This document shows, one piece after another, positions 9,112-31,291 of a DNA stretch of 64,000 nt. Position 1 is the first letter of the stretch. Every line of letters begins with the position of its first letter. The notes beneath the pieces were generated by a model. It was given only the letters and a program-made list of their open reading frames with translations. It was not told the DNA's origin and ran no database searches. This DNA comes from a virus: IMG/VR virus record IMGVR_UViG_3300045988_035499; one strand, given 5' to 3'. The translations under genes and the position numbers were made by a program.

Positions 9112-12100
9112 TTATTCACATTCTTTTTTACGTTTCTTACCCATTTCAGCGAGATAAGTCATATCTACCACATCTTCAGTAATATCCATGTTGAAAGCTT
9201 CATTTGCAATAGAAGAAGTATCTACATTAGCAAAAGGATCTTCCGTTTCTTGTGAGAATTGTTCTTGCATATCAGAGAATATATCTAACTATTCATTTAT
9301 GATGTCCATAGCTTCAGATCCATCAAATGATTCTTCTAAACTAACATTGACAAAGTCTGATACATCTGTTTCATCATACACTACATTATCTTCAGATAAC
9401 GGATCTATATTAAAGGTAGTATCTACTACTTGCGTATCAGATACATCACCTTCTATTTGCTTCTATGTTCCGTTTATTTTTACCTAAATATTATCTGAAC
9501 TAAGAGGTATAAACTGTTTAGTAAATCTACTTTCATCCTTTAATTTAGGTAATTTAACTCTAGACATTGCAGTTTCTGCTATAACACTATCGTCAGTTAA
9601 TACATTTTCATCAAACGCATTCTAATCAAAAGCTGATATATCCAAACCACCTTTTGCAAATTCATTAACTCTAAATCCATTTTCTTTAATACCTAATTTA
9701 GGTATTCTCTTATAGATTAGTTTAGCTCCTCTTTTACTCTTCTTACCTTCATCATTTACATAAGCTATTTCGCCAATTAATTGATATAATTGGATTGAAG
9801 CATTATATCCGGAACCATTATTTACAGTTATGAATTCTGCTCTTCTAGTTCTATAGTGAGGAACAGCAAAGCTATCATACATTGTAATAGCTTTTCCTCC
9901 AATATTACTTCTAGATTTAGACAATACAATATCATAATCACTACTCTTAGAACGGTCTTCCTATTGTTGTTGGAAAGGATCGTTACTATTAGGTTTAAGA
10001 TTAATGTTATACTTAGGAACTATGTTAGGGTCATCCCACATGTTTCTAGCTATAGTCAATCTAATAGAAGGGAAACTCATAGATTGAGGATCATCACCAG
10101 TTTGAGCTATAGAACTATATCCAGATACATCTCCTCCATTTTTAAATTGGTCTAATACTTCTTTAATATTAGATACATAACCATTATCAATCTTATATTG
10201 AATAGGAACTAAATGGAAGAACGCATTTACTCCTCTTTCATCATAAGAAGTATAATATGCATATTTAACCAAATCTTCTGCAAATTCTCTAACTACATCA
10301 TCAGTATCTTCAAGTAATTGAGCAAAAGCAGATATTAACTGGTTCTCCCTATCATAGTCGTTATTCATTGATGATTCAGATAGAATAATTCTGTCTACAT
10401 TCTGCCCTTCTAAGCCATCTGCTGGATATTCCTATAAATAATTTAATAACTCATTCTTTATAGTTCCATCTTGATTAATAAGATGTGGGAAAGCATCTTT
10501 GTTAAGTAACAGATATCTTTTAAGTTTGGTCAATCTAGAACACATTGTATTCTTACCTACAAACATACCTATAAATTGATCATCCGTCATTTTAAGGAAG
10601 TCAGTATTAGAAGTAGCTCTAGCTCTAATTATACTATCGATCATTCTATTTATATTCTGAACAAACTTCTTATCACCCTGGTGTTTATAGGATATTAAAT
10701 CATTACCATCTGTACCTTTAATGATATCTCCTCCTACAATATTACCCATTACTGAATTAAATATATTCTAGTAAGTCCAAGTTGCAGGGAATGTTTGACT
10801 CTTAAGAATCTTTCTAGCTATAGTAGTAGCATTATATAACTTCTTACTTAAGAATGTATTACTAAAGTAATACTTTAAAGCATCATCTACTTCCTTACCT
10901 TTTATTTCAAATACTCCAGAATTATCATATATGAACGTTTGATATGAATTCACAAAGTTTAACTATAGTGCAAGATTGTTACCAAACTTCTTAGTATCAA
11001 TCTGAGATCTATGTACTAATTCACTAAGTGTTTTAGCATCCATACTTAATTCTTTATAAGCATGTAATACAATAATCTATTGATATAAGAATGGCAAATT
11101 GTCCTATTTTCTATTCTTTAAAGCGTATATAAGACTAGATTCATCAAATACCTATGTCTTATCTATTACTTCACTCTTTATTCCAGGATATGCAGAGTAC
11201 CCAATTTCTTCAGCTAAGCCATTATATTTAGCTTTCCAATTTTGTTTACTTTCACCTTCTGGCAGAGCATCTATAGCTTCCTTAAGTAACCTACCATACA
11301 CATTGTATAATCCGGTTATTATCTAGTTTTCCTACAGATTCTCAGCACCATATACTCCTTTACTATTGATAACTCTATTGGATAACTCTTTTAATATAGG
11401 TTGAGCTAAGAAATAGAAAGTATTCTTACCTTTACCACCTCTAAGTAATAGATTAGTCATATTATAAGTAACCTAGTTAACATTTAAAGCAATGATGTAA
11501 GGGTCTTTAGCAACGTCTACGTGAGCATTAATCATAGCAGATAACCAGTCAAGGATTCTAAATCCATCTTGACCTTTAATAGCATCTAAGTCTCCTAACT
11601 AATATACATTACTATGACTATATATCATATTAAGATGCATTAACTATGTTAATACATGGTTAGTAGAGTTAAGAGCAAAAGGAGCAATACCAGCTTTACC
11701 ACTAGTATACTCTTCTTTTCTAGATTCCTAGAATGAAGGTAATAATTCATAGAAAGGATCTGCTTCTTGTTTACTAGAACTTGATATTAACGGTAATACA
11801 TCATCTTGTAGCATACCAGTAAGAGTATCAATAGACGCTCTAGTCTCAGCCATATTCTTAGTATCTGATACTACTAATTGATAATTCTGTATTATCATAT
11901 TCTGTAACGCTTCAGGACTTTGCTCGCTTACTTTATCATTAGTATATTGAACTATATTTCCATCTGTATCGTAATTCAACATGGCAATATACAATTTATC
12001 AACGTCGAAGTCAGAACCAGTCATGGCTGTAAATTCATCTGGAACTACTATAGTATCACTGAATCTATCAGGAAGTACATCTACTACTTTAAATGAGAAA

Positions 12101-15100
12101 GTAGAAGACAAACCCTGAGTAGGGATACGATAACCAATACCTTGTGGAATAGAATTAGTGCCAATTACATTGTGATCAGTCAACCATTTCTTCATAGTTC
12201 CATAAGAAGTCTGATACTCTTTTGGTACTATATGTCTAAAGAAATTAGTACTCAAAATAACATCCATACTTCCATCTTTATTCAGGAATCTAAGTTTATT
12301 ACCGCCATTAAATGCGCCATTTAACTCTGATTCTTTCATTCTAGCATCGGTTGCTTTTAAACCAAATGAAGACATCTGAATAGCAGAACCACCAGGAGTA
12401 TTAATATCTACTACTTCTTTATTTATAAATGAGATAATTCTACTTTCAATCCATTGTCTACTGCTCTGAGCTGCTAATGGGACAAGTATATTACCATCCT
12501 AATCAAGAGTAAGACCTTTAACAAACTCATCAGACATACCAGAGCTAACAGCCTAACTAACTAAATAGTCCGATAAAGCCTTATTATTCAGTTTACCTTT
12601 ATGGAAGAATCTCTTAATTATTCTCTTATAACCTATGTCAGATAACTAATTGATAGCATCCATAGTCTAAGTCTTAATCTGTTGACCTGTCTTAGTAGCA
12701 GCTTTATTAGCACCATATACTCGGTCGTCTATAAGGTTACCTAAACATATTTTAACAGCCTAAGTACCAAATGAACGGTCGATATGTTCATGTGGATCTG
12801 TATTCAACTGTAAACGTAAATTACGAATATCCTAAACAAATACAGGTAAATCTCCTTCTTTCTTAGTAAGATTAAAGGATTTTTTATTTAAACCCTCTAC
12901 ATTAAAATGTTCATTCTTAGGTCCTTCGTAAGCCTCAAATTTAGTTCTACCACCAACCTTAACAGCAGATTCAAAAGTAACCATATCAATTACTCCTAGG
13001 TCTTCATTATTCATGCGGTCGTATAAAACTTTATTGTCAGCTTTAGCTATTACTTTGAATAATGGGAACATAGCCATCTTATCAAATACGGGAACATTCA
13101 GATTTATATCACTTTCTCTATGGTCCCCAAAGTATACCATCTTTAAAGGCTTAACTACAAGAGCCAAAGTTTTCTGATATAACTCTGGTTTATTCATCCA
13201 TGATTCATCTCCTCCTTCCATTATTTGATAAGCTTCTTCGATAGCATCACTCCATTGTCCTAAAGCTTTCATAATACGCCTATACATAGCAGGACGAATA
13301 TATACAGCAGCGTCAGATTGATTGATATTACCACCTACGATATTTCCTTTATCGTCTCTTCTAAAGTCATACGGTCTAGCGCTAGCATTAGTATAACTAT
13401 CTACGAATTCTTTTTGATTCTTAGTGAGAGAATTATAGAAAGCGTCTTCTTTCTATTTAGTAGATAAAGCTTCTATTATAGCGTTGTCACTTAAACCAGG
13501 ATTCGCTTCACTATATAAGTCACGTAAAATAGAGTTTCGGAATATGCTTTTTAATTCATTATAATAATCAGAACCAAGCATATTATCGGCTAAATGCATT
13601 ACAGTTACTTTGGTATCGTTTTCAGTAGGATTGCCCCAAACAGTTCTAAGATTAGTACCAGTTGATAATACTGAAGACAAACGTTTAGTCTTATCTACGT
13701 CCTTGCCAGTTATTATATCGAAAGTCTAGTTAAAATGTCCTTCTTTAGTAACTTTATATCTCTTGGTTTTTCTACGTTTCCACTTATAATATGCAGGGTC
13801 TCCAGTAAAACATTTCTCTACTTCCATAATAGAAATAGCCTAATTAGCTACATGTGATCCAATTATAGAGAATAATATATCTTGATTTTTAAGATCAGCC
13901 TATTCAGAAGTATACAACTTATTATCTACTTGGGACTCATAATAGCCGAATATATTGTTAGGTATTAGTTTATTAACATACTATCCGTTTGAATATCCTA
14001 GTATACCTCTTCTGACAAGAGCTCGCATCTCCCTCTAAGTAGCGTGCAATAACAAATGATTTATTGCAGAGAATATAGGAGCATCAGGTTCTATGACTTC
14101 TTTATAATTAGGTTTTGGTGTACCTAGTAGCAATACCTTCAAATCCGACAAATACTTCTGAACTTCCTCTGTAGTACCATATTGTTCTAATCTAGCCAGA
14201 TCTTGGTTAATGTTTACGACATCTTCACCTAGTCTTAATTTAGTAAAATACCTGAATCTACCTCCGTTGCCAGTATGATCCATCTTACCATTCTTGATCT
14301 TTCCGTGATAATTATCTACTCTTAAAGTAGGATGTTGCGCAATATAGTCTTTTTTCTAGAAATAATCCCATACAGCATTAAACTCATCTAACCAGTAATT
14401 AGCAAATATATTAAGAGTACCTTGACTAAATCTTCTTTCTCCTATGTAAGTAGAATTTTCAGCTGTTAAATCTTCTCCAACAATAGCTGCGTAATTAGCT
14501 TCTCCTTCATCAGTATATTTACTGGTAAGAATATCTTTTACCATTTTGATACCTGATATACTATACCAAGTCTTCTTATCAGACATAGTGGGTAATATTA
14601 TTCTATCGTTAAAAGTAAGAGTAAGCTTAGCAATATAATCTTCAACAGGAGTAATACCGAAATAATCTCTACTAGATTCATCTATATCCAGTGCTAAGAA
14701 AGTGTGCAATTTAAATTTAGTATTCTTAGCATTAGCTATCAAACTATGTGCAGAGAATGGAGTACTTAATATCTATTGTTTCTTACCGTTAGCATCTTGA
14801 TTAATATTACGTATTTGATCTGTCATATAGTTATTCTCACTAATAGGATAAATCAATGCACCATCTGCTCCAACAACACTAAATTCTTGAGGAGAAGGAT
14901 GTACTTTACCATATGATATTGCCATAACAGCTATCTAACTGTTAGAATTTCTACCAAATGTAAACATTCTATCTAAAGTTCTAGAATATCCACCACTTGA
15001 TGTAGATTTTACACCTATATCTTTAGTTTCAGCTAGTTTAATTAAAGTAGCTAAAGTACCTTCATTAAATCTCTCTGTCTTACTAACTCCAGTACTCTTC

Positions 15101-18100
15101 CAGAAATTATATAGCTTATCAAATTCGGTAGCTCCGACATAGAAGTTATTAAGCATATAGTCTAATGCTAAGTTATCCATAGGAATAGATAAAGCATTGA
15201 ATACATCCAATAAAGTATCCTTTATTTCCTATATCTTAGTATCATCTACTGGTTTACCTTTCTTTATTCTATCACTTACTATTTTAAAAGTAGAACTTAA
15301 TTTACCTCTTCTATCTTTTAAGAATTTAGCAAATTCTGGTTTGATGAAAGGTCTACCGCTATCTGTTCTATCTATAGCATCAGATGCGAAGAACATGCCA
15401 GACCATCTAGCAGGAAGTCTACCTACTTTACGTAAATTATCACTATCTTCTACAACCCAATTAAATTTACTTAAGTTAGATTGTATTTCACTAGCTATTT
15501 CATCTTCAGACTTACCTCTTGTATTTACTTTAGGATGTTTAGTAGTAATAGTGTCTAATTGCACTTTAGAACTCTTTATAGTTATCTCTAACTAAGTTTT
15601 AGTATTATCAGATATAGGTGCTTCTTCCGAAGTAAGAATATCGTATAAAGATTTAAAGAAAGGAATAGTATTGCCTAAATTAGCACTTCTATCTATTATA
15701 TCCTGATACTTGTCTATATCCCATAAGTTCTCCATAATCTGATTCCATACGAAATTGAAATCTTCAGTTACAGGGAGTTGGAACATATCATCATGTACAG
15801 GGAATAACTCTTTAGTAATAACACCATTTTCTTCATTTTCAACGAATTGGTATTCATACTTAGGTATAGAGTAGAAGAATAATTTAGCTCTAAAGCTAAC
15901 GTTATCTTTCTTACTTACTTCACCCTGATTCTTATCCCAATTGTTTTCAGGCTGCTCTCCAGTCTCTACTTTTAATCTAGATTCTTCTTCGTTATCTACT
16001 TTTTCTACTTCTCTAATTCCTAATTGTTCTATCTTCTTGCGAACATATCTTGTAAATATATCTTTATTATTTACTATATCCTAAGCAATATCTACATATT
16101 CGTCAGATATCCAACCAAAGTCTATATTCTACTTTAATCTGTCAAACAATAAAGAAGTATTAAGATTATGAACATCCTCTATAGTCCTAATATTGAATAT
16201 AGATAACGCTCCACTAGTAAGAGAATTAACAGCATGATAGAATACATCTGGGTCAGTTATATGAGGTAATTTAGCTTCTTCTTCCTTTGATAAACCAGGT
16301 ATATAATAAGATAGACCTTCTGGTTTACGGCTATAGAAATCTTCTAATGCTTGCTTAGATGCTTTATAATCCTTAAACTAACCGTCATTTATACTCTTGA
16401 AAAAAGCTCTGATTATATTTCTATGAGAATTCCAGAAGTATAAGGTATTATATATCTTCTTAAAGATTCTAATAACATTGTACAATAAACCTTTACCGTT
16501 TTGATCCTTAGCATAATTACGGAATTCTTCAGCAAGAGCTTCTTCTGCCTAGTCTTTGGTAAGATTTCTAGCGCTTCTCTTAGATTTAGAATATTCTTGA
16601 TATAACTTAGTTCTCTATTGTTCACTCAATAACATTTGAGTTACATAGTGGAATGCTTCGTGATATTCTACACCTGCACCAGATTGTCTAGATAAAGATA
16701 TACGAGGTATTAATTCGTTAGATAATGCGTCCATTACTACGCTAAATAAACCATACGCCTCTTCGTTAGCTCCAAACTTAATCATTTGGTCTGTTACTAA
16801 TATTTGATCGCTATCTATACCTAACTTATCAAACAACCACTTCTTAGCAGAATCTTCATTAAACTTACCTCTACCTTTAATAGTTGATTTAAGACCACCT
16901 AAGAACTTAATTGGAGTAAGAGTAACTTCTCTTTTACCAGTCTTAGGATTGAGAACAATACCCCATTTAAGGTATTGACTTTCTTTCATACCATTATTAG
17001 GTATACTTAAACCGTATTTTTCAAGATTCTCAGGAGTAGCTCTTTCAGCAATCACAACTTTCTTACCACTAGCTGTCTTAGCTTGAGAAGGTTTACTTAC
17101 TTCTTCTATAACCTTATCTTGAGTATTAACAGTGGGTTTAGGTTTATCTTGTTGTTTCTATAATTCTTCTTTATTTATAGCAGCATCATCCGCATATATA
17201 AATGGAGCATAGAATGCATGTTCACCCAAATCTGTCTTTAATATTCCATTGTTAATAGCCCAAGTAATTACTAAAGGAGAATCAGATACTTTTTCAGCTT
17301 TACCATCCTTAAAAGTATAACCTATTTCTTTTAAAGAGAAAGTCAAATCTTTAGAGAATATAGGTATTCTACTGTTTTCATCTTTTACTAGATTAGGAGA
17401 ACTATTAGCTATAGATACTAATAAGTCTATAAATTCTTGAGGGAATTCAGACATCAGTACGTCCTTATCAGTATTCCAGTGTATATTCTATGAAATCTAG
17501 AATACTATTCTCCTCTTTTCAAAATCTGTTAAAGTAGCTAGATTAGTAAATTGTGTACTAAATCTCTTTTCAGTTCTAGGACCATCTTGAGTATATATAG
17601 TAGCATCCTCACTATGGTATCCGTTAACAAAGAATTTATTACCTTTATCGTCAGTATATATGCCTAATTGCTTTCTTACTAAGAAATTATATTTAATTCT
17701 TTCTACTCCTTCTAAACCGTTAGTAAATGTATTAGAACCACTATTAGCTAATAATGATAACAAGAAAGAATCAATTATCTTAGCATTAGAACCTCTTACT
17801 GATGTTTGCCCAGTAATAATATTAAATATTAACTCAGCAGTAGAAGGAGTAATTGGCTTTCCTTGCTCATCTACATTTTGAGTGCCGTCTGCATTGAAGG
17901 ATAATTTAACCTGCTCCGGATTATTTACTCCAGGTATTCTATGCAATTCCTCAGATAACATAATGGGTAATGTAGCAGTACCAGAAGGAGTGTTTTCAGG
18001 TTTAGGTATAAAGTATATTTTACCAGCATAACCTACACCTTGTGTTTCAGTCTTATCTCTAGTAAACATATCATCTATCGAGAAAGGATCAACACCAAAT

Positions 18101-21100
18101 GGACCAGTACCATATCCAAACTGAATATCTCCACTGGTTATTTGTTCAGACATAGCAATGGCATCTTCTGTAATACCAAAATCACTTACTTCGGTTAACT
18201 TTCTAAACTTTGGTAATCCAGCCTCATCTACTTGATTATCAAGCTGACCATTACTTATTCTTATCCCTACAGGTTTAACATGCTTTCTAGCCGTTAATGG
18301 TAATGTTTTAGTAGTAGAATATTCTGGAGCATAAGCCTTAATTATTTTAGCTCTCAATTCTCTTAACTTCTATATCTACTCATCTATTTCATCCTAAGTC
18401 ATTTCCGTATCTCTCATACGGTCATACTGACTCTAATTGATTGCTCTAACAGATGCATTATACAGTTTACCATCCTTCTCTATCATCACGTGAATAGCTA
18501 AATTATCTATAGCACTATCAAATGACATATCATGTTTAGAGGAAGTAACTACAAAGTATATATCATCAGCTGTTGATAACCATCCTGGAATAGCTAAATT
18601 AGCAGCTAATTCACTACCTGGTCTTCTATCAACCTTACCTCCATCTTTACCTATAAACTATACAGATTTACCAGCTACAGTAATAGGCATAACTTCATCT
18701 GTATTAGGTTGAAAGAAGAAAGTATTAGCTATATGTAATCTCCTGAATTTTTTTCTAGCAGATACCCAACCATTAGCTGATCTATTATAATATGAAGAAG
18801 GCCCTTGTAATCTGGAATCAAAATCATATGATTCTTCAAATGCTGATTGTTCTAATATATCTTGGTCATTTACTGGTATGCCGTTTTCGGGATTGCCATC
18901 AGGCATATATACTAGCTAATCATTCTAAGCATCATAAAAAATTTCATCAGATTTTGGAGTATCTTCTACTTCTGTAACATTTACTGGATTTTCTACTTGA
19001 GGAACAATATCTGAAGCTGCAGGAGTATCTTCTACTTTTGTTACTGTAGGCTATTCCGCAGACCCTTCCTCTTCATCCTATGTTGATTCTTCAGCAGGAG
19101 CAAATTGAGTATCATCTACTTCTTCCTACTGTTCTTGAGATTCTTCAGCAGTAGAATCATCTGTCTGCTACTCTTCTACTTCTTCAGCAATATCTGTAGG
19201 TTCTACCGATGTAACTTCTTCAGCTGGATTCTACATCTATACTTCATCTTCTATATCTTGATTAGTATTAGTAACGCCATCCATCTCCACATCAGCTTCT
19301 ACCTCATCCACACTTACTCTATCTTGTAAAGGAGAACCTTCTATAGCTTCCTCTAACATGTTTAGTTGATCTTCTAGACTACTTATCTCCTATTCAGCTA
19401 CCTATACGTCTGGTATAGTAACTTCTTCCACTTCATCCATAGGAGCAACCTCTGGAGCTTTTGTTTCCGTATTAGGAGTTCCTTGTTCTATATCTGCCAA
19501 ATTACCAGTATCTTCGGCTATCTCTTCTCTACTTACTTGCTCTTGATCTTTTTTACGCTGTAAATCTTTCTGAATAACAGACATAGCTCTTTTACGCTGT
19601 ACTACATCCTAGTCAGCAAGTTTATCGTCTTTACTCCATTCTTCATTTACAGAGTCATCATAGTCCTATATAATCTATTCAGAAGTTCTAGTCTTACCGT
19701 TGATTCTATCAGCCTACATTTGAGTAGTAAGTATTTGCTTCTACTGTTCTTCAGTAAGATTATTATAAGTAGGTTTATATAATCTAGTATCTCCTACATA
19801 CTTTCCAGTAGTATAAGCTAAAGCATGAGCAAATAAATCAGCTCTAGCTCCATCGTTAACGTACTTACTTACAGTAGCTACAGATAATTGATCTGCAAAA
19901 GGAATAGTTAAACCAAGGTCAATAACTTGTTCTCCTACTTCTTCTCCTAAGAATCGCTGTATAACTGGTTTGCGTTCCTTTATTTGAGATTCTACATACT
20001 TTATAATACCAGATATACCATCTACATTTACATCTAAATTCTTATCCTCTTTTAGTCTTTGTAAATCTTGCTTTCTAGAATTAAGTTCATCTCTAAGAGT
20101 AAGTAAGTCATTGTAATCTTGAACAGCAACCATTCTGCCCATGAATTCATTAGCATACTCTTCTTCAGATAGTACATTTCTTTCACCCAGTAATTGGTCT
20201 ACATATTCAGATAATTCCTTTTTACTTCTAGAACTAATATCAGATGCAGGTAAATCATCAACTATCTGTCTTCTTCTATCACTACGTTTTTTATCATAAC
20301 GAGCTAAGTAATCTGAATAATGCTGTTTTATTTCTTCTTTTAAGTCAGCATCCTCTCTTATTTTCTGAATAATGCTTTCTATTTCTCTAGTAGATGCTTC
20401 AGATGCTTCACTAGCATTCTTCAATCTATCTTGAATAGATACAGCATTTTTTACTACATATATAAAGTCATTACTGTTTATTCCTAGTTCATCAGTTATA
20501 CTACGTAAAGGCTTATTGTTAGATAATCTTTCTATGTTATTTACTAATCTTATGTCTTCATCAATCATTTCATTAGTAACACCTTCAGGTTTAAATTTAT
20601 CCTTAAGCGTTTCTAAGTTATTGATTATTCTAGAATAACCTTTTCTTCCATCAGAACTAGCAGCATTCATAAACTGCTCTACTTTGTTTTGTCTTTCGGC
20701 ATTACCATAACCATCGGCTATGTAACCTCTTAGGTTACTATCTGTAAGATATTGAGCAGTAGCACTATACACATCAGGTGAACTAAATACTCCAGACATA
20801 AATAATCCAGTAAATCCACCTATATCCATAGACCTACGTAAGTCAGCGTCACCATTCAAATTCTCATCTGGATGAATGCCATAGTATGCCATATGGGCTT
20901 CTCCTGCTAATTTTAAAGCATTTGCAGCCCCCCACAATAGACTATAATCTCCAGCATTATCATACTTACCAGTTCTGTAATAATTACTTACTACTCCCTG
21001 TTGACCTTCTTCAGTCTTTTCCATGAAGTAAGAAACACCTAATTTCTTACCAATATTAGTGAGATTACTTATAGCATTGTATGCTCTAGTTTTACCTCCA

Positions 21101-22911
21101 GGAGTTTTCCAAGCTTTATCTACAGCTCTAGCAATAGTACGATCTATAATACCATCAGCTGCTGCATATAAATCATCCTTGCGTAATCTATCAGTTACAG
21201 CAGTTTCTAAGTTAGATGATATACTACGATTACCTACAGCTCTTTTAGCAGCTTTCTGTAAACCAAAGTAGTTCTTCATATATGAACCACCAAACATAAA
21301 CATACCTTGAGCTAAGTCAGATAACATTAAAGCTTGATTAGTCTGTCTAACTGCATCTAGACCTTTCTGAGAATCATTTACTAACTGATTAAAATTAGCA
21401 TCAGGAGTGATTATATTCTGAGATAAAGCGTTCTCTAATACTTCATAATCTGTCATTTCAGAAGTATCAAAACCTCTAGCTTTTAATTGTTCATCAGCTG
21501 ATTGTATTACACTAGGAAAATTAATTCTCATCTAATCTGCACCTTCTAGTACTCTCTACTTGAACGAATCAAATACTTCAGCTTGAGTTTCTGAATTACG
21601 AGTGTAATTAGTAATAGCAGCTTGAGTAGCTAATTCTGCAGCACCAATCAGTAAAGGAGCAGTACCGCCAGAACCTGCTGCCATAGCAGCTTTAGATGCC
21701 CATTTAGCAGCCATACTAGTACCAAATTGTCCTAACATAGCTCCAAATTCAGAATAACTGGTACCCAATTCTGGTAAGGCATAGACCCAAGATTCTGGAT
21801 TAAATGCAGATATCTAATTACTTTCCTGTTTTTCTCTGAATTCTGGGGATATTTTACTAGGATCGTATAACCAATTGCCATGTTTCAAAGTATGTATCAT
21901 GCTTTGTATCTGTTGATTCTTATCGTCTAAACGTGATTTTGCAACCCTTTCAGCGCTATTGAGTAGTTCAAGCTACTTTGATAAATTGTTGTCCTAATTT
22001 TTACTACTCCACATGTATTCTATCTGGTCTGGAGATAACTAATGAGTTCTTCCAAATATAGCATCGTTTATACCATCATTGGCTAGTAAATGTTTAAAGT
22101 TGTTTCCAGGATTAATATCGTACATATAATCCTCTGCCAACCAGTCAAAACTATAATATTTCCACAAATCCGCAATAGAACTAAACTTATCAGTACTAAA
22201 TAGCTTGCCTGGTCTAGTTTCATAGAATATATCCTATAGATAAGGGTTAGTTCTAGCTAAGTCTTTTAAACCAGGCTAATGATATATAACATTACCATTC
22301 TGATCTAATTGATTTACTCCATTCTCTATGTTCCTAATACTGTTCTATAATTCAATTATTCTATTCTGTGCTGCTTGAATTTGTGTAGGAGTCCAATTTG
22401 TTGCAGTATTAATATTTCTCTACAGATCAACAAGTTCTTGTTTGCTTAATAGATAATTCTTAGCTAAATTAATAGAATTCAGATAATTAGCTTCTCCTTC
22501 TCTGACTTCATTCTATAATCTACTTAACTTAGATTGATCCTTTTTCTCCATAAAACTACGATATACATCTAAAGCTTTAATGTTTCCATCCTTCTCTGCT
22601 TTATTGTACAAACGATCTAATATCCTAATACTATTAGAATTAGGATCTACTTCTTCAGTAGTTTGAAGTAACTCTGGCATACGTCTGGATGTCCACCAAT
22701 TATATGTATCTTCAGCCTCGGCAGAATTATCTTTAGTTACTTCGTTATTGTAGTTTATATCGCTTTCTCTGTCTTCCAACTTTCTTTGGTAATAGTCTGA
22801 CCTAGAATCGTAAGAATACCCATAATCACCTTGTAAGGTGTATTTAGGGTATTCACTAACGAGACTACTTTCTGTATCTTTACCTAGAGTATAGTTCTAT
22901 TGTCTACTCAT
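9112..22911 (-). CDS. giant fusion protein (4599 aa) containing a crAss-type virion RNA polymerase module (DFDVD) plus a zincin motif; TAG read as sense
   Basis: All track fragments from 22513-22779 down to 9622-9924 share one frame. Every gap was scanned and holds only TAG interruptions (about 74). The motif GYRIPTQGLSS...TGSDFDVDKLY (DFDVD at 11998-12012) parallels the beta-prime RxPTLH...NADFDGD motif. HEAFH lies at 16648-16662. An acidic low-complexity stretch spans about 18907-19400, and a Gly/Ala hydrophobic segment about 21556-21768. Bounded by ATG 22911 and TAA 9112. Confidence 0.75.
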
Positions 22912-22915
22912 AATA

Positions 22916-24511
22916 TTATTTTAAATGTAATCTGTATTTTTCAGATTGAGCTTGCAGCATATCTCTAACATCTTGTCCTAATTTTCTTCTATTTGCATGC
23001 AAAGCATCATTCTCAACTGCCTCTAAACCTTGTCTTGGTACAACTGTACTTACTGGAATTCTTAAGTATGTACCTTGTTTAAGAGCTGTATTAACTGAAG
23101 TTCTAGTTTCACCATAATCGTTAGTTGATTCAGTTACTCTTACCTGATCTTCATTGAGATTCACCCAGTCTCCTTGTACTTCTGCTAAATCTTTAGCATT
23201 ATATTTACCCTTATCTATATCTGATTTAGGTATGAAGATATATTTATTGTGGAATATATTTGAACCATCTGTGGTAATATTCGGAGTACCAGCTACTAAG
23301 AAGTTTTTAAACTATCCAGATTCTAAGTCTTCTTGCAGTTTACTGCTACTTCCAATCTATCTGTCCATTAAATTCTCTGCAAGACGTTTTCTAAGTAAGA
23401 ACTCAGAGGAAGAGTTACCGACTCTCCATCCTTGAGAGGTCATTTTACCAGTTTGAGTTCCTTGTGCAGTTAATATCTCGTTTGCTTCTGCTCCTATACC
23501 ACTACTTAAAATTCCAATAACATCGTTAATAGCACTATTTAAACTATTATTAGTTTTAGCACTAAGAACAAACATGTCGTTCAATTTTTTTCTAGCATCT
23601 TGAACTGTAGGGGCATCTTTCAATGCGTTAGTAAAGGTATTATCTGCTGTTATTTCCAATTGATCTGTAAGATTGAGAAGACCTCTTTGCTATTCTTCCT
23701 AACCTGGATTTCTTCTAGCTAAAGCTACAGACAATGGATCGCGTTGAACAGAATTCCAAGTAAATTCTCTACCAGCAGTGATAATTTGTCTATTGAGTTC
23801 TTCTACTGCCGCTTCATCACTAATATCAGGGTTCTGTAATTTAATGATTTGCAGGTTTTGTGTGTAATGTGGTGAAGTAACGATACTAGACCAGTTTTGT
23901 CTCAGCTGCGCATCAGTATCTTCATCTGCCACGCCAGTGTACAACAAACCATTTTTACTACCAAGATATCTTCCCTTAAGGTTATCTACAAACGGTTTAA
24001 CCATATCTACTGTAGACTTATAAGCTAATGGTGAAACATCATTGAATATACCTACACCCGTTGTGTCATAATTAGTGAAATCTACATCATGTAGTAACGG
24101 ATTATAACCACCGCGCAACATAAGTTCTTGATTAGCTTTCTATCTAGCTAGCATTCCTTCTCTACTTTGCTTCAGTTCTGATAACGTTGAATAGTCTATA
24201 TTATTAAGCATACTCTGTAGAGTTGCTCTGTTAGCAGCGTCTTTTAAATAATCTGGGTTGTTGATCATCTAATTAATAGCCCCCTATATATCTTGTCTAT
24301 TTGTAGTTAAGTTATACCAACGTTTTGTATCAATGTCAGAAGGAGACGTAAATTCACCAAACTTCTATAACTATGCTCCAAACTACTAAGCAGCCTAGTC
24401 TACTGCTTCCTTCTAAGTTGCACCTATTCTATATAAGTTACTAAAATCTATAGGTACGTATGTATTCAGTATTGGAGCTTCTGCAGCTCTATCAAATCTA
24501 TTAGCCTACAT
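22916..24511 (-). CDS. structural/cargo protein of unknown function (531 aa)
   Basis: Fragments 22916-23164, 23357-23659 and 23699-24121 are co-framed. The frame stays open to ATG 24511, which is preceded by GGAGGTAATT. The second codon is TAG. Ends in TAA. Confidence 0.65.
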
Positions 24512-26450
24512 AATTACCTCCTTTTCTTAAATACTTGTTAAAATTAACTATATCTTGTTTAGTAAATCCTGCTTGTAAGAACGGGGCGTATAATTCCATC
24601 ATAGCATTATCTCTATTTCTCTGATTACGCATAAGCTGTCTATTTTGACCGTACTGACTTAACTGACTAAGACCAGTTCTTCTAATATTTCTAGTAGTAG
24701 CTCTATTAGCCGCATTAGTCTCATTAGCTAAATTAGTAGCTGCTACATATTGTTGACCTAAGCTATTCATAGTATTAGCGTAGTCTCCTAAGTATTGATT
24801 ATTAGTGTTACTTTCTTGACCTCTAAGACTTGCTATAGCTCTGTCTGTATTAACAGCACTCTATAATCTATAAGCAAGATTAGCACCTGTATTAGTGTTC
24901 ATCTGTCCTGCGTTATAGTTACTGATTGCTCTATTTCTAGTAATATCTTCTACTGCTGGATCAATATTAAAACGTCTATCACTCATAGTTCTAGTAATAG
25001 CGTTAGCATAAGGATTGTACATAGCGTCTACGGGTCTTTCGTTCTTAGCAAACAGATTAGACATAATGGGACTTATTGTAGCAATATCACTTAATAGTTC
25101 AGAGATATTATAATCAGTAATAGTGTCATTCTAATCACCTGCATTGCTTGTATTATTTGTTCTAGGTATATACTGTCTAGTTCTGATATCTCCGATAGTA
25201 GGCTGTAAGTCAATATTTTCATCTACAACAGGATCAAGTATATCCGTGCTTAATTCTGGAGTTGTGATATTACTCTTACTACGTCTTTTTGTACCTATTA
25301 TGTTTCTCTGTGAATAAATAGACGGATCTATAGTATCGCTCTACGCATGAGAAGGTAGGCTAGTTGATTTGAATACTTTATAACCGAATGGATTCCACAC
25401 ATCAGTAATAAAACTATCCTATACTCTACCTCTTTTAGTTCTATTGTATAATGAATCTTCAACAGGTCCACCATTAACAAAGCTCTCTATCTGTGCTATT
25501 TTAGTTTTATCTTTAATGCCTCTGTTTGCCTTTACTTGTTCCTACATAGCGAACAACTAATCGTAAATCATCTGATTATTCCTTTCATTGAGCATATTAG
25601 AATTTTCAGCAAATTTATCTTTACCTTTACTTCTTCTTTTTGTCATCATTTTCTCTCCTAATTCTGAGAAGGTTTTTTTAGTTCCAGGAACTTTTAATGT
25701 ATTACTAAGTATACGACTACCTTCTGGTATTGATACTAAATTACTATCCAAAGGTTGACCCATTTCAGGTACTTGATTAATACTACCATCTGGAGTCTGA
25801 ATCAACTCTCCATCATCTACATAAGCTAATGAAGAAGGAACCATACCACCGTCTGCAAATGTGTTAGTATTCATATCTCCATATTCTAATCCGTATCTAT
25901 TCTCTAAATCATTAGTACCTTGTACAGCCGCTCTGTTATTATAAGCATTCATTCTAATACGTCTGCGCTCTCTACGCAAACCTTTATTACCTATAGCTCC
26001 CATAATTCCAGTACCTAAAGTACCATCATTATAATCTGTAAAGCTAGACATAGATGCCTCTTCACCCTTACTACCTATAGCTCCGATACCAGCTCCTACA
26101 ATAGCTCCGATGGGTCCACCTACAGTAAAACCCATAGCTGCACCTTTACCAACGTTAGCCACAGATTGAGTAGCCGCTTCTCCACCGCTAGTAGCAGTAG
26201 ACTTCTTAAACGGATTAGATAATAAATCTATAGCATCTCCAGCCATTCCTACCACATTGTCCATATTCATACCAGCTCCCATACTCTTCGTAGGCATATT
26301 GGGTATGCTAGGTGTAGGAGCATTATTTATAGAAGACTATAATGGATTATACGCTACTCCATTATTATACGCTACTAAACCCGCCATCTCTGAATTGGTG
26401 GCAGTACCATAAGCAGCTGCAGGTATCTTTATTTTTCTTTTCTTTTTCAT
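24501..26450 (-). CDS. ejection/internal-virion-like protein with a glycine-zipper hydrophobic segment (649 aa)
   Basis: Fragments 24501-24770, 24861-25064 and 25557-26297 are co-framed and separated only by TAG. It has a basic N-terminus (MKKKRKIKIP), a GGPIGAIVGAGIGAIG segment and an FADGGMVP motif. Ends in TAA at 24501. Confidence 0.6.
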
Positions 26451-26451
26451 A

Positions 26452-29400
26452 TTAAATTAATGAATATCTATAAGTAGTTGTAATTTGTGGTATTTCAAAG
26501 GTATGTTCATTAAGACTATCTATATCATAATCACATATCATATATTTACCCCTCATCCTAGCAGGCAATGACAGTTCGTCTTCATTCTTATCTGCTCTAG
26601 GAACTGGAATTCTATAAGTATCTTCCCTGTAATCCATACCAGTAGTATAATAAGGAATAGCGTTAGTATGCTGATCTTTAGTATAGAAGTCTATGTTCTT
26701 TATTATACCGTCTGTAACATTATTTCCTGCCTCATCCTTGAAATGACCTTGAAGTCTGACATTGTCAAATACTTTAGTGTAAGGCGTATCTTTGTTAATT
26801 ACAATGGTTAACTTAGCATCCTTATCAATAGATTCTAATCCTTTTATATCCTTATTATTTATAGTATAAAAGTTCATATCCTTCATTGTTACGCACCTAT
26901 TTGACAATGGTAACGACCATTGAGGGGCAAAAGTATAGAAAGATGTAAAACGTCCAATCTACTCGTTGAATATTAAAGACTTATCTAATAACCTAAACCA
27001 TACTTCATTATACTTCTTATCAAATAATGAGGTAACGTAACCTTTCTTTCTATTAGTTAGATTACTATTCAGGTATGATTGTACTTGCTTCTCCTTAGAT
27101 ATCTGACTTACAGCTCCAGAATAACTACATATTTCATTTTTATCATAATCATACCAATAAAGTACATTGTCAGAATTTACTATACTTCTATCGTTTATAA
27201 CAGAATCTCCATTAGTGTTAGTAATATAGTCATATCTACTTAGAATACCACCAGTACCTAATACAAGTTGATTAGCATTATCATCAGTAACTAACGATCT
27301 CTCATTGACAGATGCTATACCAACTCCAGTATCTTGGAAATAGAACAGCCTATCCTTAAATACTTTAAGATTACTGATATCACCCCATTGATTATCTACA
27401 TCTAAGTAATCAGCAACCTTGAATTTACTCCAGGAATCTATTACTTCGTTGTTAGTCTTAACTTGAGAACTTAGTATTCTATTAGGTATAGTTATATTAA
27501 TTCTTTCTCCATACTCATTGATATAATAATGTTCAGCATATATAGAACTAGGCACATACTTCTTAGTAGTCTACTATGTAGAGTATACAGAGTTATATAC
27601 GTAGTAAGGTCTATCCTATGCATGATACACACCTTTCTGAGTAGGCTCTAACTGCATATGGGAATCGATGTAATTATCACTAGTATAGGTTCTATGAGCC
27701 ATGCTGCCATTAAACAAGTTCATATTTATACTGGATTCAAACGGTATATAAGCTCCCATATACCTTCTTCTGTACTGTGCATCTTCTTCATCGTTAGCCT
27801 AGAAAGTAAACATATTAGCGTAATCTAATACATTCAAGAAGGTATCTCCTCCATATACATAACATGAACCAGAGTTCTTATAAGCATTAGTAGTTATGTA
27901 TACAGAATTCTATCTAGATGCATACGTATTACCACCATATGGAGCTGTTATGCTTCTTTTAACATTAAATACTGGCAATGCATTAATAGAATGTAATTCA
28001 TTAAAGTTAGGATCTAATACTCCGCTAAATCTACTATTGTACTTATCTAAGTTCTCTGTCTATATAATTATACATGGTCCAGCTGCACCAAGTGTTACCT
28101 ATTGATTATTTGTATCAAAGTTAGACATGGCATAGTTAGTATAAGTTCTTTCTCCAACAGTAACTCTATAAGGAGTTACATCATGATAAGCATTATATGG
28201 TATATCTGACGGATATCTTGCATCTCTAATTGGGATGTTTACAGCTGTATTAGCTGTATTCTTATATTTAGGGTAGTAATACTTTGCTATACTAGCATTA
28301 TACGGAATAGGATTCCAGTCTTTATCAGTACACTGTAAATCCATTGTAAGTTCTCCGTCTTCTCTAAATACAAAGTCACTCCAATTAGATACCTATTTAA
28401 TGCTGCCATTATACTGTAATACTCTATCTGCCTGTGCAAAAGTATAGGCTAACTAACTCTCAGGTAAGCCTTTTCTATTTACTCCTGTAGGAGCAATAGG
28501 AGACATATATGTACATATAGGATCTAAGTATGTAGAATCTTTGAAATACTTTTCAAAATCTGCCTAAGCTACACATATCTCAGGGGATATTATTCGTAAA
28601 TAGTTTTCTACATAAGTAGGTTTAGGAACCTTATCTGTCTTCTAATAAAACCTAATATAGTCTTTACCTGCTACAGTATTGTTTCCATAAGTCCACGTTT
28701 TAATGTTCTCCTTATGATAAGTAAGCATATAAGCAGGACGCATCTCTATAGAACTATCTAACTCACTACCGTGACCAGCATCAGAGTCTTCCTGAATTCT
28801 ATATTCGTATAAATTGCTACCAACACATTGAGTAATAATAGATCTGTCTAGTTCTGTTCTATCACATCTTACTATTTCATAAGCTACTGTGCCTTTAGGT
28901 TTATCTTTAACTGTAAACCTGATACCTAAAGCTTGACCAATCAAAGTATTATCCTAGTATACAAATGGGGGGATCTAGTCAGCATGAGGCATCTTAATAT
29001 CACCTATCCAGTATACTGGAGACGGTATCATCTTATTGTTATAGAATACTATACCAAAACGATACACTTCATCTCTTTGATAACCTTTAAAGTAAGCGGA
29101 TATATAAGGATCAGCATAATTTGGTATTCTAGTCTGAGTACCAGATTGATTAAATGAAATTGCACCAGTAGTAGAAGTACCTACATTAGTAGCAGACACA
29201 CTATTCATAATTCTACTTCTAACATTCATAGAAGTATTATGATCTAGTTTAAGCTGCTTCTATTTCTCACTAAGTTCTATAGGTATAGTACAGAAATTAT
29301 ACTCTATGTTAGTACCGTAACCTCCTAGTACGTTATTATCATTTACCTTCTTACCGTATATGTATCTAACATCTTCTGAAGTATTAGAGTACTCCATACT

Positions 29401-30585
29401 ATTATATGGGTTTATACAGTCATGGTTATATGGTACTGTAGTTAAATCAGAATCAGTAGTTATTGTTAACTTACTTGAAGTATTTGCTGATTCTAATACT
29501 CCAACTCCATATTGATTGAATCTGTACGCTCTTGCATCGAATTCTCCTGGATCCCATGTATTATCCTGAATATTGGCTGCAAACAACCTATTGTCCATTT
29601 TAGCTAAAGTATTGGCTATAAATTGATATCCGGTTAATGCGTTAAATTCCTCTAAACTCAGTTCACTCAACACAGAGTTACCACTATCTACATAGTGTAG
29701 CTCTTTCTAATCCTCGGTAATATCTAATTCATCTACTATAATTATCTTAGCTATTTGACTATTATCATTATATCTTATACTGATAATTCTTGCTCTTTGA
29801 AAATCTTTTACAGTTATAGGAGCAGATAGGTTACACGCTTTGCCAGAAGATGTATCAGGATAAGAGCCTTCATACTTCTAACTGTCTTGATTAGTACTAC
29901 TCTAAGTTAAATGTATCATTTGACTCAAAGGAGACGTAACAGTTTCTGTACCATGCACATTGAATAATTGATAACAGTACTATACTACACCAGTAGGCAA
30001 ATTACCAAAACTTAAATCATTAACCTATAGTGGAGGTAGTTCTGCAGAAGGAGTCATATCAATAGCTTCAGGATTTATGATATTACCTTCATCATCTACT
30101 AAGTCAGAACCTTCAGAGTACTTCTGATCCATTATATTAAGTATCTTAACAGGACTCTCTCCATCAGTAAAGTATATCTTTATATTCTTTTCAGATTCAT
30201 AATTACATACGATACTTATATTAGGATGTTTTTCTATATTTTCTGATAACTTTAGATCACCTTGACATACTACTTGTATAGTAAGCATATTAGTGTCAAA
30301 ACCAGATATCCTATATACTCTATTATACCCATTAGACATCTTGGTTATTACTACACCGTATTGATCTATTGTAGCAGTACCTATCACTATCTCATCTTTA
30401 TATAAAGAATTCCAATACTTCCTTACACATTCTATATTCTATAGTACACCCGTAGTACCACCATCGTTAGTAATGACACGCACATTCTCAGCATAGCGAT
30501 ACTGCTCACTAGGGAGTAAATTGACATCTGTATCCAGATTCATACCCCCATTAAATGTATTTACTTGTGCTGTATTACTTATCAT
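26452..30585 (-). CDS. large tail (muzzle/nozzle-type) structural protein (1377 aa)
   Basis: Seven track fragments (26452-26907 through 30025-30387) share one frame, and the gaps contain only TAG. Bounded by ATG 30585 and TAA 26452. The function is inferred from size and position only. Confidence 0.6.
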
Positions 30586-31291
30586 AATTTATTTTTTTAT
30601 CTAAAAATTTCCAAATAAATCCTCCAGCAGTCTTACTTCTACCATGTAAACAGTTACTTATATTTGCTGCAGATATTCCACATTTCTTAGAGGCGTCGTA
30701 TTTAGATTGATATTCATTTATTAACACATCATCTACGGTATATTGCCCTACAGCTTTTCTAGTACGACTACAGTTTGAATATCTAATAATTTTACCTATA
30801 TTATCAGCTTTATCAAATGACCACTAATATCCTTTGTACGACTTCTTACGACCATCACATATAGCTCTTACATTGTCTGTAAACCCATTGACAAATTTAG
30901 CTGCCTGTTTAAGATTTTTAAAAGATTGTATATACTTTCCAGTTAAATCATATTGATGCACAGGCGCTCCATCTACTCTAGCTTCATTATAGAACGCATA
31001 CTGCTATATATATTTATTCTCTAAATAGTGAAGTGTATCTATATTTTCATCGCAATGTTCTAATATGATATAACTAAATTTGTCAATTCCTATCTTATTA
31101 AAGTCACATTGTAATCGTTCATTTGCGTGTTTATCATTTTTAAGATAACCTATATGAGTTCTTAAACGTCTCCTTAGATTAGTAGTAGATCCAATATACA
31201 TATGGTTATTCAAATCATTTCTTATTGCGTATACTCCGGACGTATATGGTATATGCTTATAAAAATCATCAGTTAATTTAAATGTTTCCAT
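30575..31291 (-). CDS. GIY-YIG homing endonuclease 1 (free-standing, 238 aa)
   Basis: GVYAIRND...YIGSTTNLRRRLRTH...RLQCDFNKIG...ILE is a GIY-YIG core. The C-terminus carries helix-turn-helix-like repeats (AAKFVNGFTDNVRAICDGRKKSYKGY.W, GISAANISNCLHGRSKTAGGFIWKF). It contains 2 in-frame TAG (31004, 30824). The ATG at 31291 follows the upstream stop directly. Confidence 0.8.

Follow-up and report, generated by a model that had tools for sequence, protein, structure and literature searches.

The window considered here, a 64,000-nucleotide (nt) stretch of DNA from the virus record IMGVR_UViG_3300045988_035499, carries on its minus strand a giant open reading frame (ORF) at 9112-22911. This ORF very probably represents the form that the crassvirus virion transcription block takes in the Suoliviridae: a late gene, read with TAG as glutamine, in which a gp47-like cargo protein is fused to a virion RNA polymerase (RNAP) of the gp50/gp66 type. 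No phages are more abundant in the human gut than crassviruses, whose infection is started by the RNAP that they inject. The product has two halves, whose counterparts are separate proteins in other crassvirus families, as in crAss001 and phi14:2. The cargo half extends from residue 1 to about residue 2230 (16222-22911; the end is approximate), and the RNAP module runs from about residue 2297 to residue 4599 (9115-16023).

The ORF is a single frame of 13,800 nt that runs from the ATG at 22911 to a TAA at 9112 and comprises 4,599 sense codons plus the TAA; 74 of the in-frame codons are TAG, and none is TAA or TGA. The initial annotation, which had read this region as one frame with TAG as a sense codon, was thus correct on this point. 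The recoding extends beyond this gene. ORFs of at least 150 amino acids cover 41% of it under the standard code and 98% if TAG is a sense codon, compared with 54% if TGA is a sense codon, and in-frame TAGs are present in nearly all of the minus-strand genes between 4196 and 63758. Three plus-strand genes at 116-3684 contain no in-frame TAG; a division into two such domains has been described in recoded phages.

Five orthologs from the Suoliviridae were aligned with the window protein to see what stands opposite each TAG. Glutamine was the most enriched residue (10.3%, 3 times the background of 3.4%), and the TAG positions were mostly unconserved among the relatives. The TAG at residue 3360 (12832-12834) lies in an invariant column directly before the conserved LRLQLNTDPHEH motif, and this column is TAG in six Suoliviridae phages. 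We considered whether this might be a conserved, possibly functional, TAG or stop, and rejected that reading on the ground that the same column holds an ordinary glutamine codon in cr60_1 and cr52_1. The use of TAG in six phages and of a glutamine codon in two others is good evidence that TAG specifies glutamine. We conclude that TAG is decoded as glutamine across the late genes of the window; TAG-to-glutamine recoding is known from the delta group (Yutin et al., 2021). Seven of the eight relatives that we checked for TAG are recoded, the exception being cr118_1. Over the whole giant ORF of the window, TAG makes up 31% of glutamine-type sites. The heaviest recoding among the relatives examined is in the cr7_1 ortholog, where 148 TAGs occupy 49% of such sites.

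By homology, the C-terminal half is clearly a two-barrel DNA-dependent RNAP of the phi14:2 gp66 and crAss001 gp50 type. When residues 2574-4472 were compared with solved structures using phmmer, the sole match was phi14:2 gp66 (PDB 6VR4; E = 2.6e-33), and the alignment paired GYRIPTQG (residue 3593) with GYRIPNQG and TGSDFDVDKLY with TGSDFDIDKMY. A profile of six Suoliviridae proteins matched gp66 over residues 197-1833 (E = 1.4e-67) and also matched crAss001 gp50 (E = 2.5e-29). The proposal that the DFDVD region belongs to a true crAss-type virion RNAP, originally made from the appearance of its catalytic loop, is therefore borne out by a match to a solved structure in which the catalytic motifs are aligned, and the motif positions first given were all correct.

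We then located the landmarks of gp66 in the window protein by transferring its published domain limits through the profile alignment. The catalytic DFDVD (11998-12012; residues 3634-3638) falls on 1361-DFDID-1365 of gp66 with maximum posterior probability. The connector between the two DPBB (double-psi beta-barrel) barrels is placed at 12382-12834 (residues 3360-3510, from gp66 1095-1238), the counterpart of the bridge helix at 11665-11742 (residues 3724-3749, from gp66 1529-1559), and the counterpart of the trigger loop at 11443-11559 (residues 3785-3823, from gp66 1598-1636). At the start of the module, an acidic segment (15898-16023; residues 2297-2338) aligned to residues 196-233 of gp66, with a posterior probability that rose from moderate at its beginning to high by its end, and is the likely counterpart of the Cleft-blocking domain. 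In the crystal structure of gp66, a virion RNAP responsible for early-gene transcription, the Cleft-blocking domain plugs the RNA-DNA cavity and is auto-inhibitory, and its possible cleavage was proposed as a means of activation (Drobysheva et al., 2020).

The identity of the N-terminal half was approached through its C-terminal domain and its place in the gene order. Residues 2142-2295 of crAss001 gp47, a protein of 2,341 residues with an identical HEAFH motif at residue 2157, match residues 2069-2184 of the window protein (E = 9.4e-15). In the direction of transcription, the genes are a gp44-like gene, two mid-sized genes, the giant ORF, and a gp65/gp49-like gene, which puts the giant ORF in the conserved block that follows the structural genes. 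Conservation of the N-terminal 2,000 residues is confined to the Suoliviridae, and we call this region gp47-like because of the homology of the domain that follows it and because of gene position and order. Taken together, the C-terminal domain and the gene order show that the predicted counterpart of the N-terminal half is the crAss001 cargo protein gp47. We also considered phi14:2 gp67 as a homolog of this half and rejected it, as the match was not significant. Mass spectrometry detected gp47, gp49, and gp50 in crAss001 virions (PMC10172136).

A giant predicted virion protein of this kind is standard in the Suoliviridae, the delta crAss-like phages of the human gut. In every Suoliviridae genome examined (12 genomes, from five subfamilies), this position is occupied by one annotated coding sequence (CDS) of 4,272-5,794 amino acids. 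The lengths are 4,272 in cr114_1, 4,400 in cr6_1, 4,460 in cr10_1, 4,464 in cr52_1, 4,491 in cr4_1, 4,494 in cr60_1, 4,502 in cr125_1 (KNV58_gp021), 4,645 in cr53_1 (KNV47_gp57), and 4,946 in cr118_1 (KNV30_gp14); the two CDSs from the Oafivirinae, cr7_1 (5,443; KNV53_gp32) and cr273_1 (5,794; KNV62_gp35), are much longer. In cr50_1, the same three modules lie within one feature. The nearest annotated relative of the window phage is cr125_1, whose gp021 is collinear with the giant protein (49% identity over residues 129-4599) and has orthologous neighbouring genes. At the DNA level, near identity was seen only with one end of MT835588.1, a GenBank contig that carries no annotation (95.6% over 2.2 kb). 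The window phage is a distinct lineage.

One of these relatives shows that the two halves can be fused without any recoding. The cr118_1 protein (Suoliviridae, Besingivirus) has the same architecture, with HEAFH at residue 1734 and DFDID at residue 3209, and its gene has no internal stop under code 11, the standard code. A single BLAST alignment between the window protein and cr118_1 gp14 extends from residue 2067 to residue 4258 of the former and so crosses the junction between the two halves.

The initial annotation had presented the fusion as unusual, on the grounds that the corresponding proteins are encoded by separate genes in crAss-like phages. This view does not hold, because the fusion is annotated as a single CDS in every Suoliviridae genome that we examined and is already in print: the fusion and the idea of a polyprotein were published by Drobysheva et al. 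(2020), and giant multidomain proteins of the transcription block were described by Yutin et al. (2021). A claim of novelty for the fusion, the recoding, or the polyprotein idea is thus not supported. The names given to the orthologs in RefSeq include "nuclear pore complex protein-like protein," "exonuclease V," "DNA helicase," "DprA-like," and "virion structural protein," and none of them (for example, those of L001 6489-19997 and L011 8382-23222) reflects the RNAP content.

Several results weigh against this interpretation of the giant ORF. Outside the HEAFH domain, the N-terminal 2,000 residues have no significant similarity to gp47, and they have none to phi14:2 gp67. The full-length protein matched 0 families in PHROGs, and a Pfam search of six chunks of it gave nothing above threshold. 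ARAGORN found no tRNA of any kind, and hence no suppressor tRNA, in this 64-kb window of a genome of roughly 98 kb; the absence of a suppressor tRNA has been reported in other recoded crassviruses too. Finally, packaging, ejection, and early transcription are known only for the phi14:2 and crAss001 homologs.

By analogy with these characterised homologs, the chain would be produced late in infection, be loaded into the capsid as cargo, and pass through the tail either before the DNA or along with it; in the next host cell, it would transcribe the early genes. Most simply, the fusion would guarantee that the two modules are packaged and ejected together in a 1:1 ratio.

The core of the HEAFH domain, with which the cargo half ends, lies at 16360-16707 (residues 2069-2184), and the motif itself at 16648-16662 (residues 2084-2088). 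All 11 sequences in our alignment, crAss001 gp47 among them, keep H2084, E2085, and H2088 unchanged. About 40 residues downstream of the HExxH, the alignment contains an EE-x-x-AE-x-F segment, represented in the window by EEALAEEF (16522-16545; residues 2123-2130), which lies on a helix predicted in the model of a homolog and may provide the third zinc ligand; in this segment E2124, A2127, and F2130 are invariant, and conservation is 90% or more at E2123 and E2128. The domain is present in 66 phage records from the Suoliviridae and Steigviridae.

Profile and fold searches gave no match to a zincin. Pfam assigned no peptidase family, and nothing above threshold, to the HEAFH chunk of the window or to 29 homologs, the best peptidase-type match being to anthrax lethal factor in one of the 29 (E = 0.076). 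A profile search of the PDB with the alignment of the domain gave chance matches only. In an AlphaFold2 model of the homolog P0005 (mean predicted local distance difference test [pLDDT] score 59.7; core 70-87), the HExxH falls on a predicted helix that follows a strand, and the order of elements (helix, strands, HExxH helix, insert helix, Glu-bearing helix) is compatible with a zincin core. Foldseek found no match to this model in the PDB with E below 0.8, and its matches in BFVD were confined to giant proteins of other crassviruses, in the corresponding segment. The zincin motif recognised in the initial annotation is thus conserved and is trailed by a conserved Glu-bearing helix, but the fold finds no support in Pfam, the PDB, or Foldseek. 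We regard the zincin assignment, which is made from motif conservation, as plausible but unproven. The N-termini of gp66 and gp50 and the C-terminus of gp67 were considered as degenerate or paralogous copies of the domain, and were rejected because they have no similarity to it.

Further domains were detected in some of the homologs. In P0017, a gp47-like C-terminal fragment, the HEAFH domain is followed by an ART-PolyVal ADP-ribosyltransferase domain (E = 3.9e-13), and three other homologs have weak matches to PD-(D/E)XK nucleases upstream. The union of ART-PolyVal with the HEAFH domain in P0017 places the family among the virion-delivered polyvalent proteins, and from their domain content the gp47-type proteins resemble polyvalent effectors of modular build. 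Among the domains of such virion-delivered proteins, zincin-like peptidases occur most often, and their predicted role is to process the polyvalent proteins (Iyer et al., 2017; PMC5512222).

We considered two main fates for the chain. Cleavage near residues 2230-2340 is a serious prospect, if a minority one, and a working protein that is not cleaved is at least as likely. The reading to which we give the most weight, at not quite an even chance, is that the giant enzyme stays intact through packaging, ejection, and transcription, with some other role for the HEAFH domain, for example against targets in the host or its cell wall, in the processing of other cargo, or in metal binding that is purely structural. 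There is a precedent in the virion RNAP of phage N4, which carries a zincin-like domain and yet is packaged unprocessed (PMC5512222). The fusion is stable across five subfamilies, with no reversion seen, and the HEAFH domain is kept in gp47 of crAss001, which is not fused. A role away from the junction would also be consistent with the suggestion of Drobysheva et al. that the Zincin-like domain of the gp65 orthologs might digest peptidoglycan. Against an intact enzyme, the auto-inhibition of gp66 by its Cleft-blocking domain means that some activation step is needed, and in other families the modules function as separate proteins.

A self-processing polyprotein, the reading of the initial annotation and one also suggested by Drobysheva et al., is a tentative alternative that is rather less likely to be right than wrong. 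The HEAFH domain would be an active zincin peptidase that cuts in cis near residues 2230-2340 (both limits approximate). The cut would set the RNAP free, and the Cleft-blocking segment could be lost with it. The HExxH and the downstream Glu are invariant across the Suoliviridae and Steigviridae, and the domain is situated about 110 residues upstream of the counterpart of the gp66 segment that was proposed to be cleavable. Its two products would correspond to proteins that crAss001 and phi14:2 make separately, and cutting would supply the activation step that an auto-inhibited enzyme needs. The processing predicted for zincin-like peptidases of polyvalent proteins, and the co-occurrence of the HEAFH domain with ART-PolyVal in one homolog, point the same way. 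Set against these arguments are the N4 RNAP; the failure of Pfam, PDB-profile, and Foldseek searches to identify a zincin, with a model of low mean pLDDT; and the fact that we found no conserved cleavage-site motif. In addition, the unfused gp47 of crAss001 ends in the same domain and has no junction there to cut, so junction cutting cannot be the sole role of the domain. A more specific version, in which the HEAFH domain replaced the RNAP's own N-terminal domain directly upstream of the Cleft-blocking segment, and a single cis-cleavage after ejection both detaches the polymerase from a gp47-like ejection module and removes the inhibitory plug, is in our opinion unlikely. If true, it would make the fusion a built-in, injection-triggered switch that activates early transcription.

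That the giant ORF is really several genes, either because some of its TAGs terminate translation (for example, those at residues 452 and 460) or because of an assembly or frameshift artefact, is very improbable. It can draw on the lack of a suppressor tRNA in the window and on a stretch directly after the TAG at residue 460: an ATG there begins an ORF of 596 codons (19744-21531; residues 461-1056) that stands alone under the standard code. This stretch contains 27 CAA or CAG glutamine codons and no TAG, and the homologous segment of the relatives has 6-15 TAGs. A gap of this length arose in 0.4% of random placements (permutation P about 0.004), and the stretch could derive from recombination with a non-recoded phage or could reflect chance. 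The initial annotation had cautioned that the TAGs at 21556-21558 and 21532-21534 (residues 452 and 460) might be terminators. Both correspond to sense codons in five relatives, with the alignment continuous across them, and the whole fused ORF of cr118_1 is free of stops in the standard code; the caution is therefore no longer needed. The count of 74 TAGs to 0 TAA or TGA over 4,599 codons, the alignment of TAGs with glutamine at mostly unconserved positions, and the presence of the same architecture in twelve independently assembled relatives likewise argue for one gene.

Three segments of the fused protein stand out in composition. An acidic low-complexity region at 18907-19551 (residues about 1121-1335) is poorly conserved among relatives; with D+E at 30-40% and K+R at 0-5%, it is as real as was first supposed. 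The segment at 21556-21768 (residues 382-452), originally described as hydrophobic, is rich in Ala, Gly, Ser, and Thr (A 21%, G 11%), a character that is kept in relatives, but its hydrophobicity had been overstated: the highest Kyte-Doolittle mean over 19 residues is 1.07, which is mild and gives no convincing membrane helix. The C-terminal tail (9115-9410; residues about 4501-4599) is strongly acidic, with D+E at 32% and no K or R in the 60-residue window that begins at residue 4501, and ends in KKRKKECE.

The giant ORF is tightly packed between its neighbours, all of them on the minus strand. The TAA of the upstream gene is separated by a 4-nt spacer from the ATG at 22911, and the TAA of the giant ORF (9112-9114) is followed, after a 2-nt spacer, by the ATG of the next gene at 9109. 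The gp44-like gene (26452-30588; 1,378 amino acids) matches the crAss001 muzzle protein gp44 (E = 3.5e-30) and phi14:2 gp71 (E = 1e-37). Between it and the giant ORF are two genes of 651 and 536 amino acids (22916-26456) that are orthologous to the neighbours in cr125_1 and cr53_1. They hold the positions of the crAss001 cargo proteins gp45 and gp46, a correspondence by position and size only, as neither has detectable similarity to gp45 or gp46.

Downstream of the giant ORF, the gene at 4196-9109 encodes a protein of about 1,637 amino acids, contains 34 TAGs, and is an ortholog of phi14:2 gp65 (E = 7.8e-17) and crAss001 gp49 (E = 4.2e-13); it is 55% identical to cr125_1 gp020. It has an HEMVH of its own at 8552-8566, which aligns with the HEIMH of phi14:2 gp65. 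A strict HExxH is absent from crAss001 gp49 and from cr118_1 gp15, and is thus not universally kept in the gp65/gp49 family. The protein for which Drobysheva et al. described a Zincin-like domain is the ortholog of this gene and not of the giant ORF. We considered whether the family might be a paralogous or degenerate copy of the HEAFH domain and rejected this, as the gp65 family was not picked up by a profile built from the HEAFH domain. The locus therefore contains two unrelated HExxH motifs, the HEMVH of this gene and the HEAFH of the giant ORF.

The value of these observations as a discovery is small, as the fusion, the recoding, and the polyprotein idea were known beforehand. They do define a concrete target: a whole family joins its polymerase covalently to a gp47-type cargo protein, with an HExxH domain beside the segment that would be auto-inhibitory. 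How a packaged, self-inhibited enzyme is switched on is a question that arose from the gp66 structure and that can be addressed here. For annotation, code 15 should be used so that the ORF is called as a single gene, and its name should say that it is a fusion with a virion RNAP; the current RefSeq labels are misleading.

Comparison with known systems places the giant ORF as follows. Its homology to phi14:2 gp66 takes in the two DPBB barrels with their connector, the DFDxD loop, the bridge helix, and the trigger loop; the Cleft-blocking segment is probably shared as well. Position 4 of the DFDxD is Val in the giant ORF and Ile in gp66, and gp66, unlike the fusion, is a stand-alone protein of 2,180 amino acids. 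The N-terminal 195 residues of gp66 have no similarity to the HEAFH domain that holds the corresponding position in the giant ORF, and phi14:2 gp67 lacks an HExxH. The crAss001 proteins are closer in their motifs: the C-terminal domain of gp47 has the HEAFH...EE-x-x-AE signature, and gp50, the homolog of the C-terminal half, carries DFDVD. The genes for gp47 and gp50 are separate and on opposite strands in crAss001, whereas in the giant ORF they are fused. With the polyvalent proteins and the N4 virion RNAP, the giant ORF has in common the predicted form of a giant, virion-delivered, multidomain protein that combines an RNAP with an HExxH-plus-Glu domain. The N4 polymerase is T7-like, whereas that of the giant ORF is of the two-barrel type, and the HEAFH domain has no detectable sequence or fold link to the described metallopeptidase (MPTase) clades. 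The closest likeness is to the giant CDSs of the Suoliviridae in RefSeq, which share collinearity, flanking genes, and the HEAFH and DFDxD motifs with the window copy and differ in identity (25-60%) and in length (a spread of 1,500 amino acids); the window copy also has the 596-codon TAG-free stretch, which is specific to its lineage.

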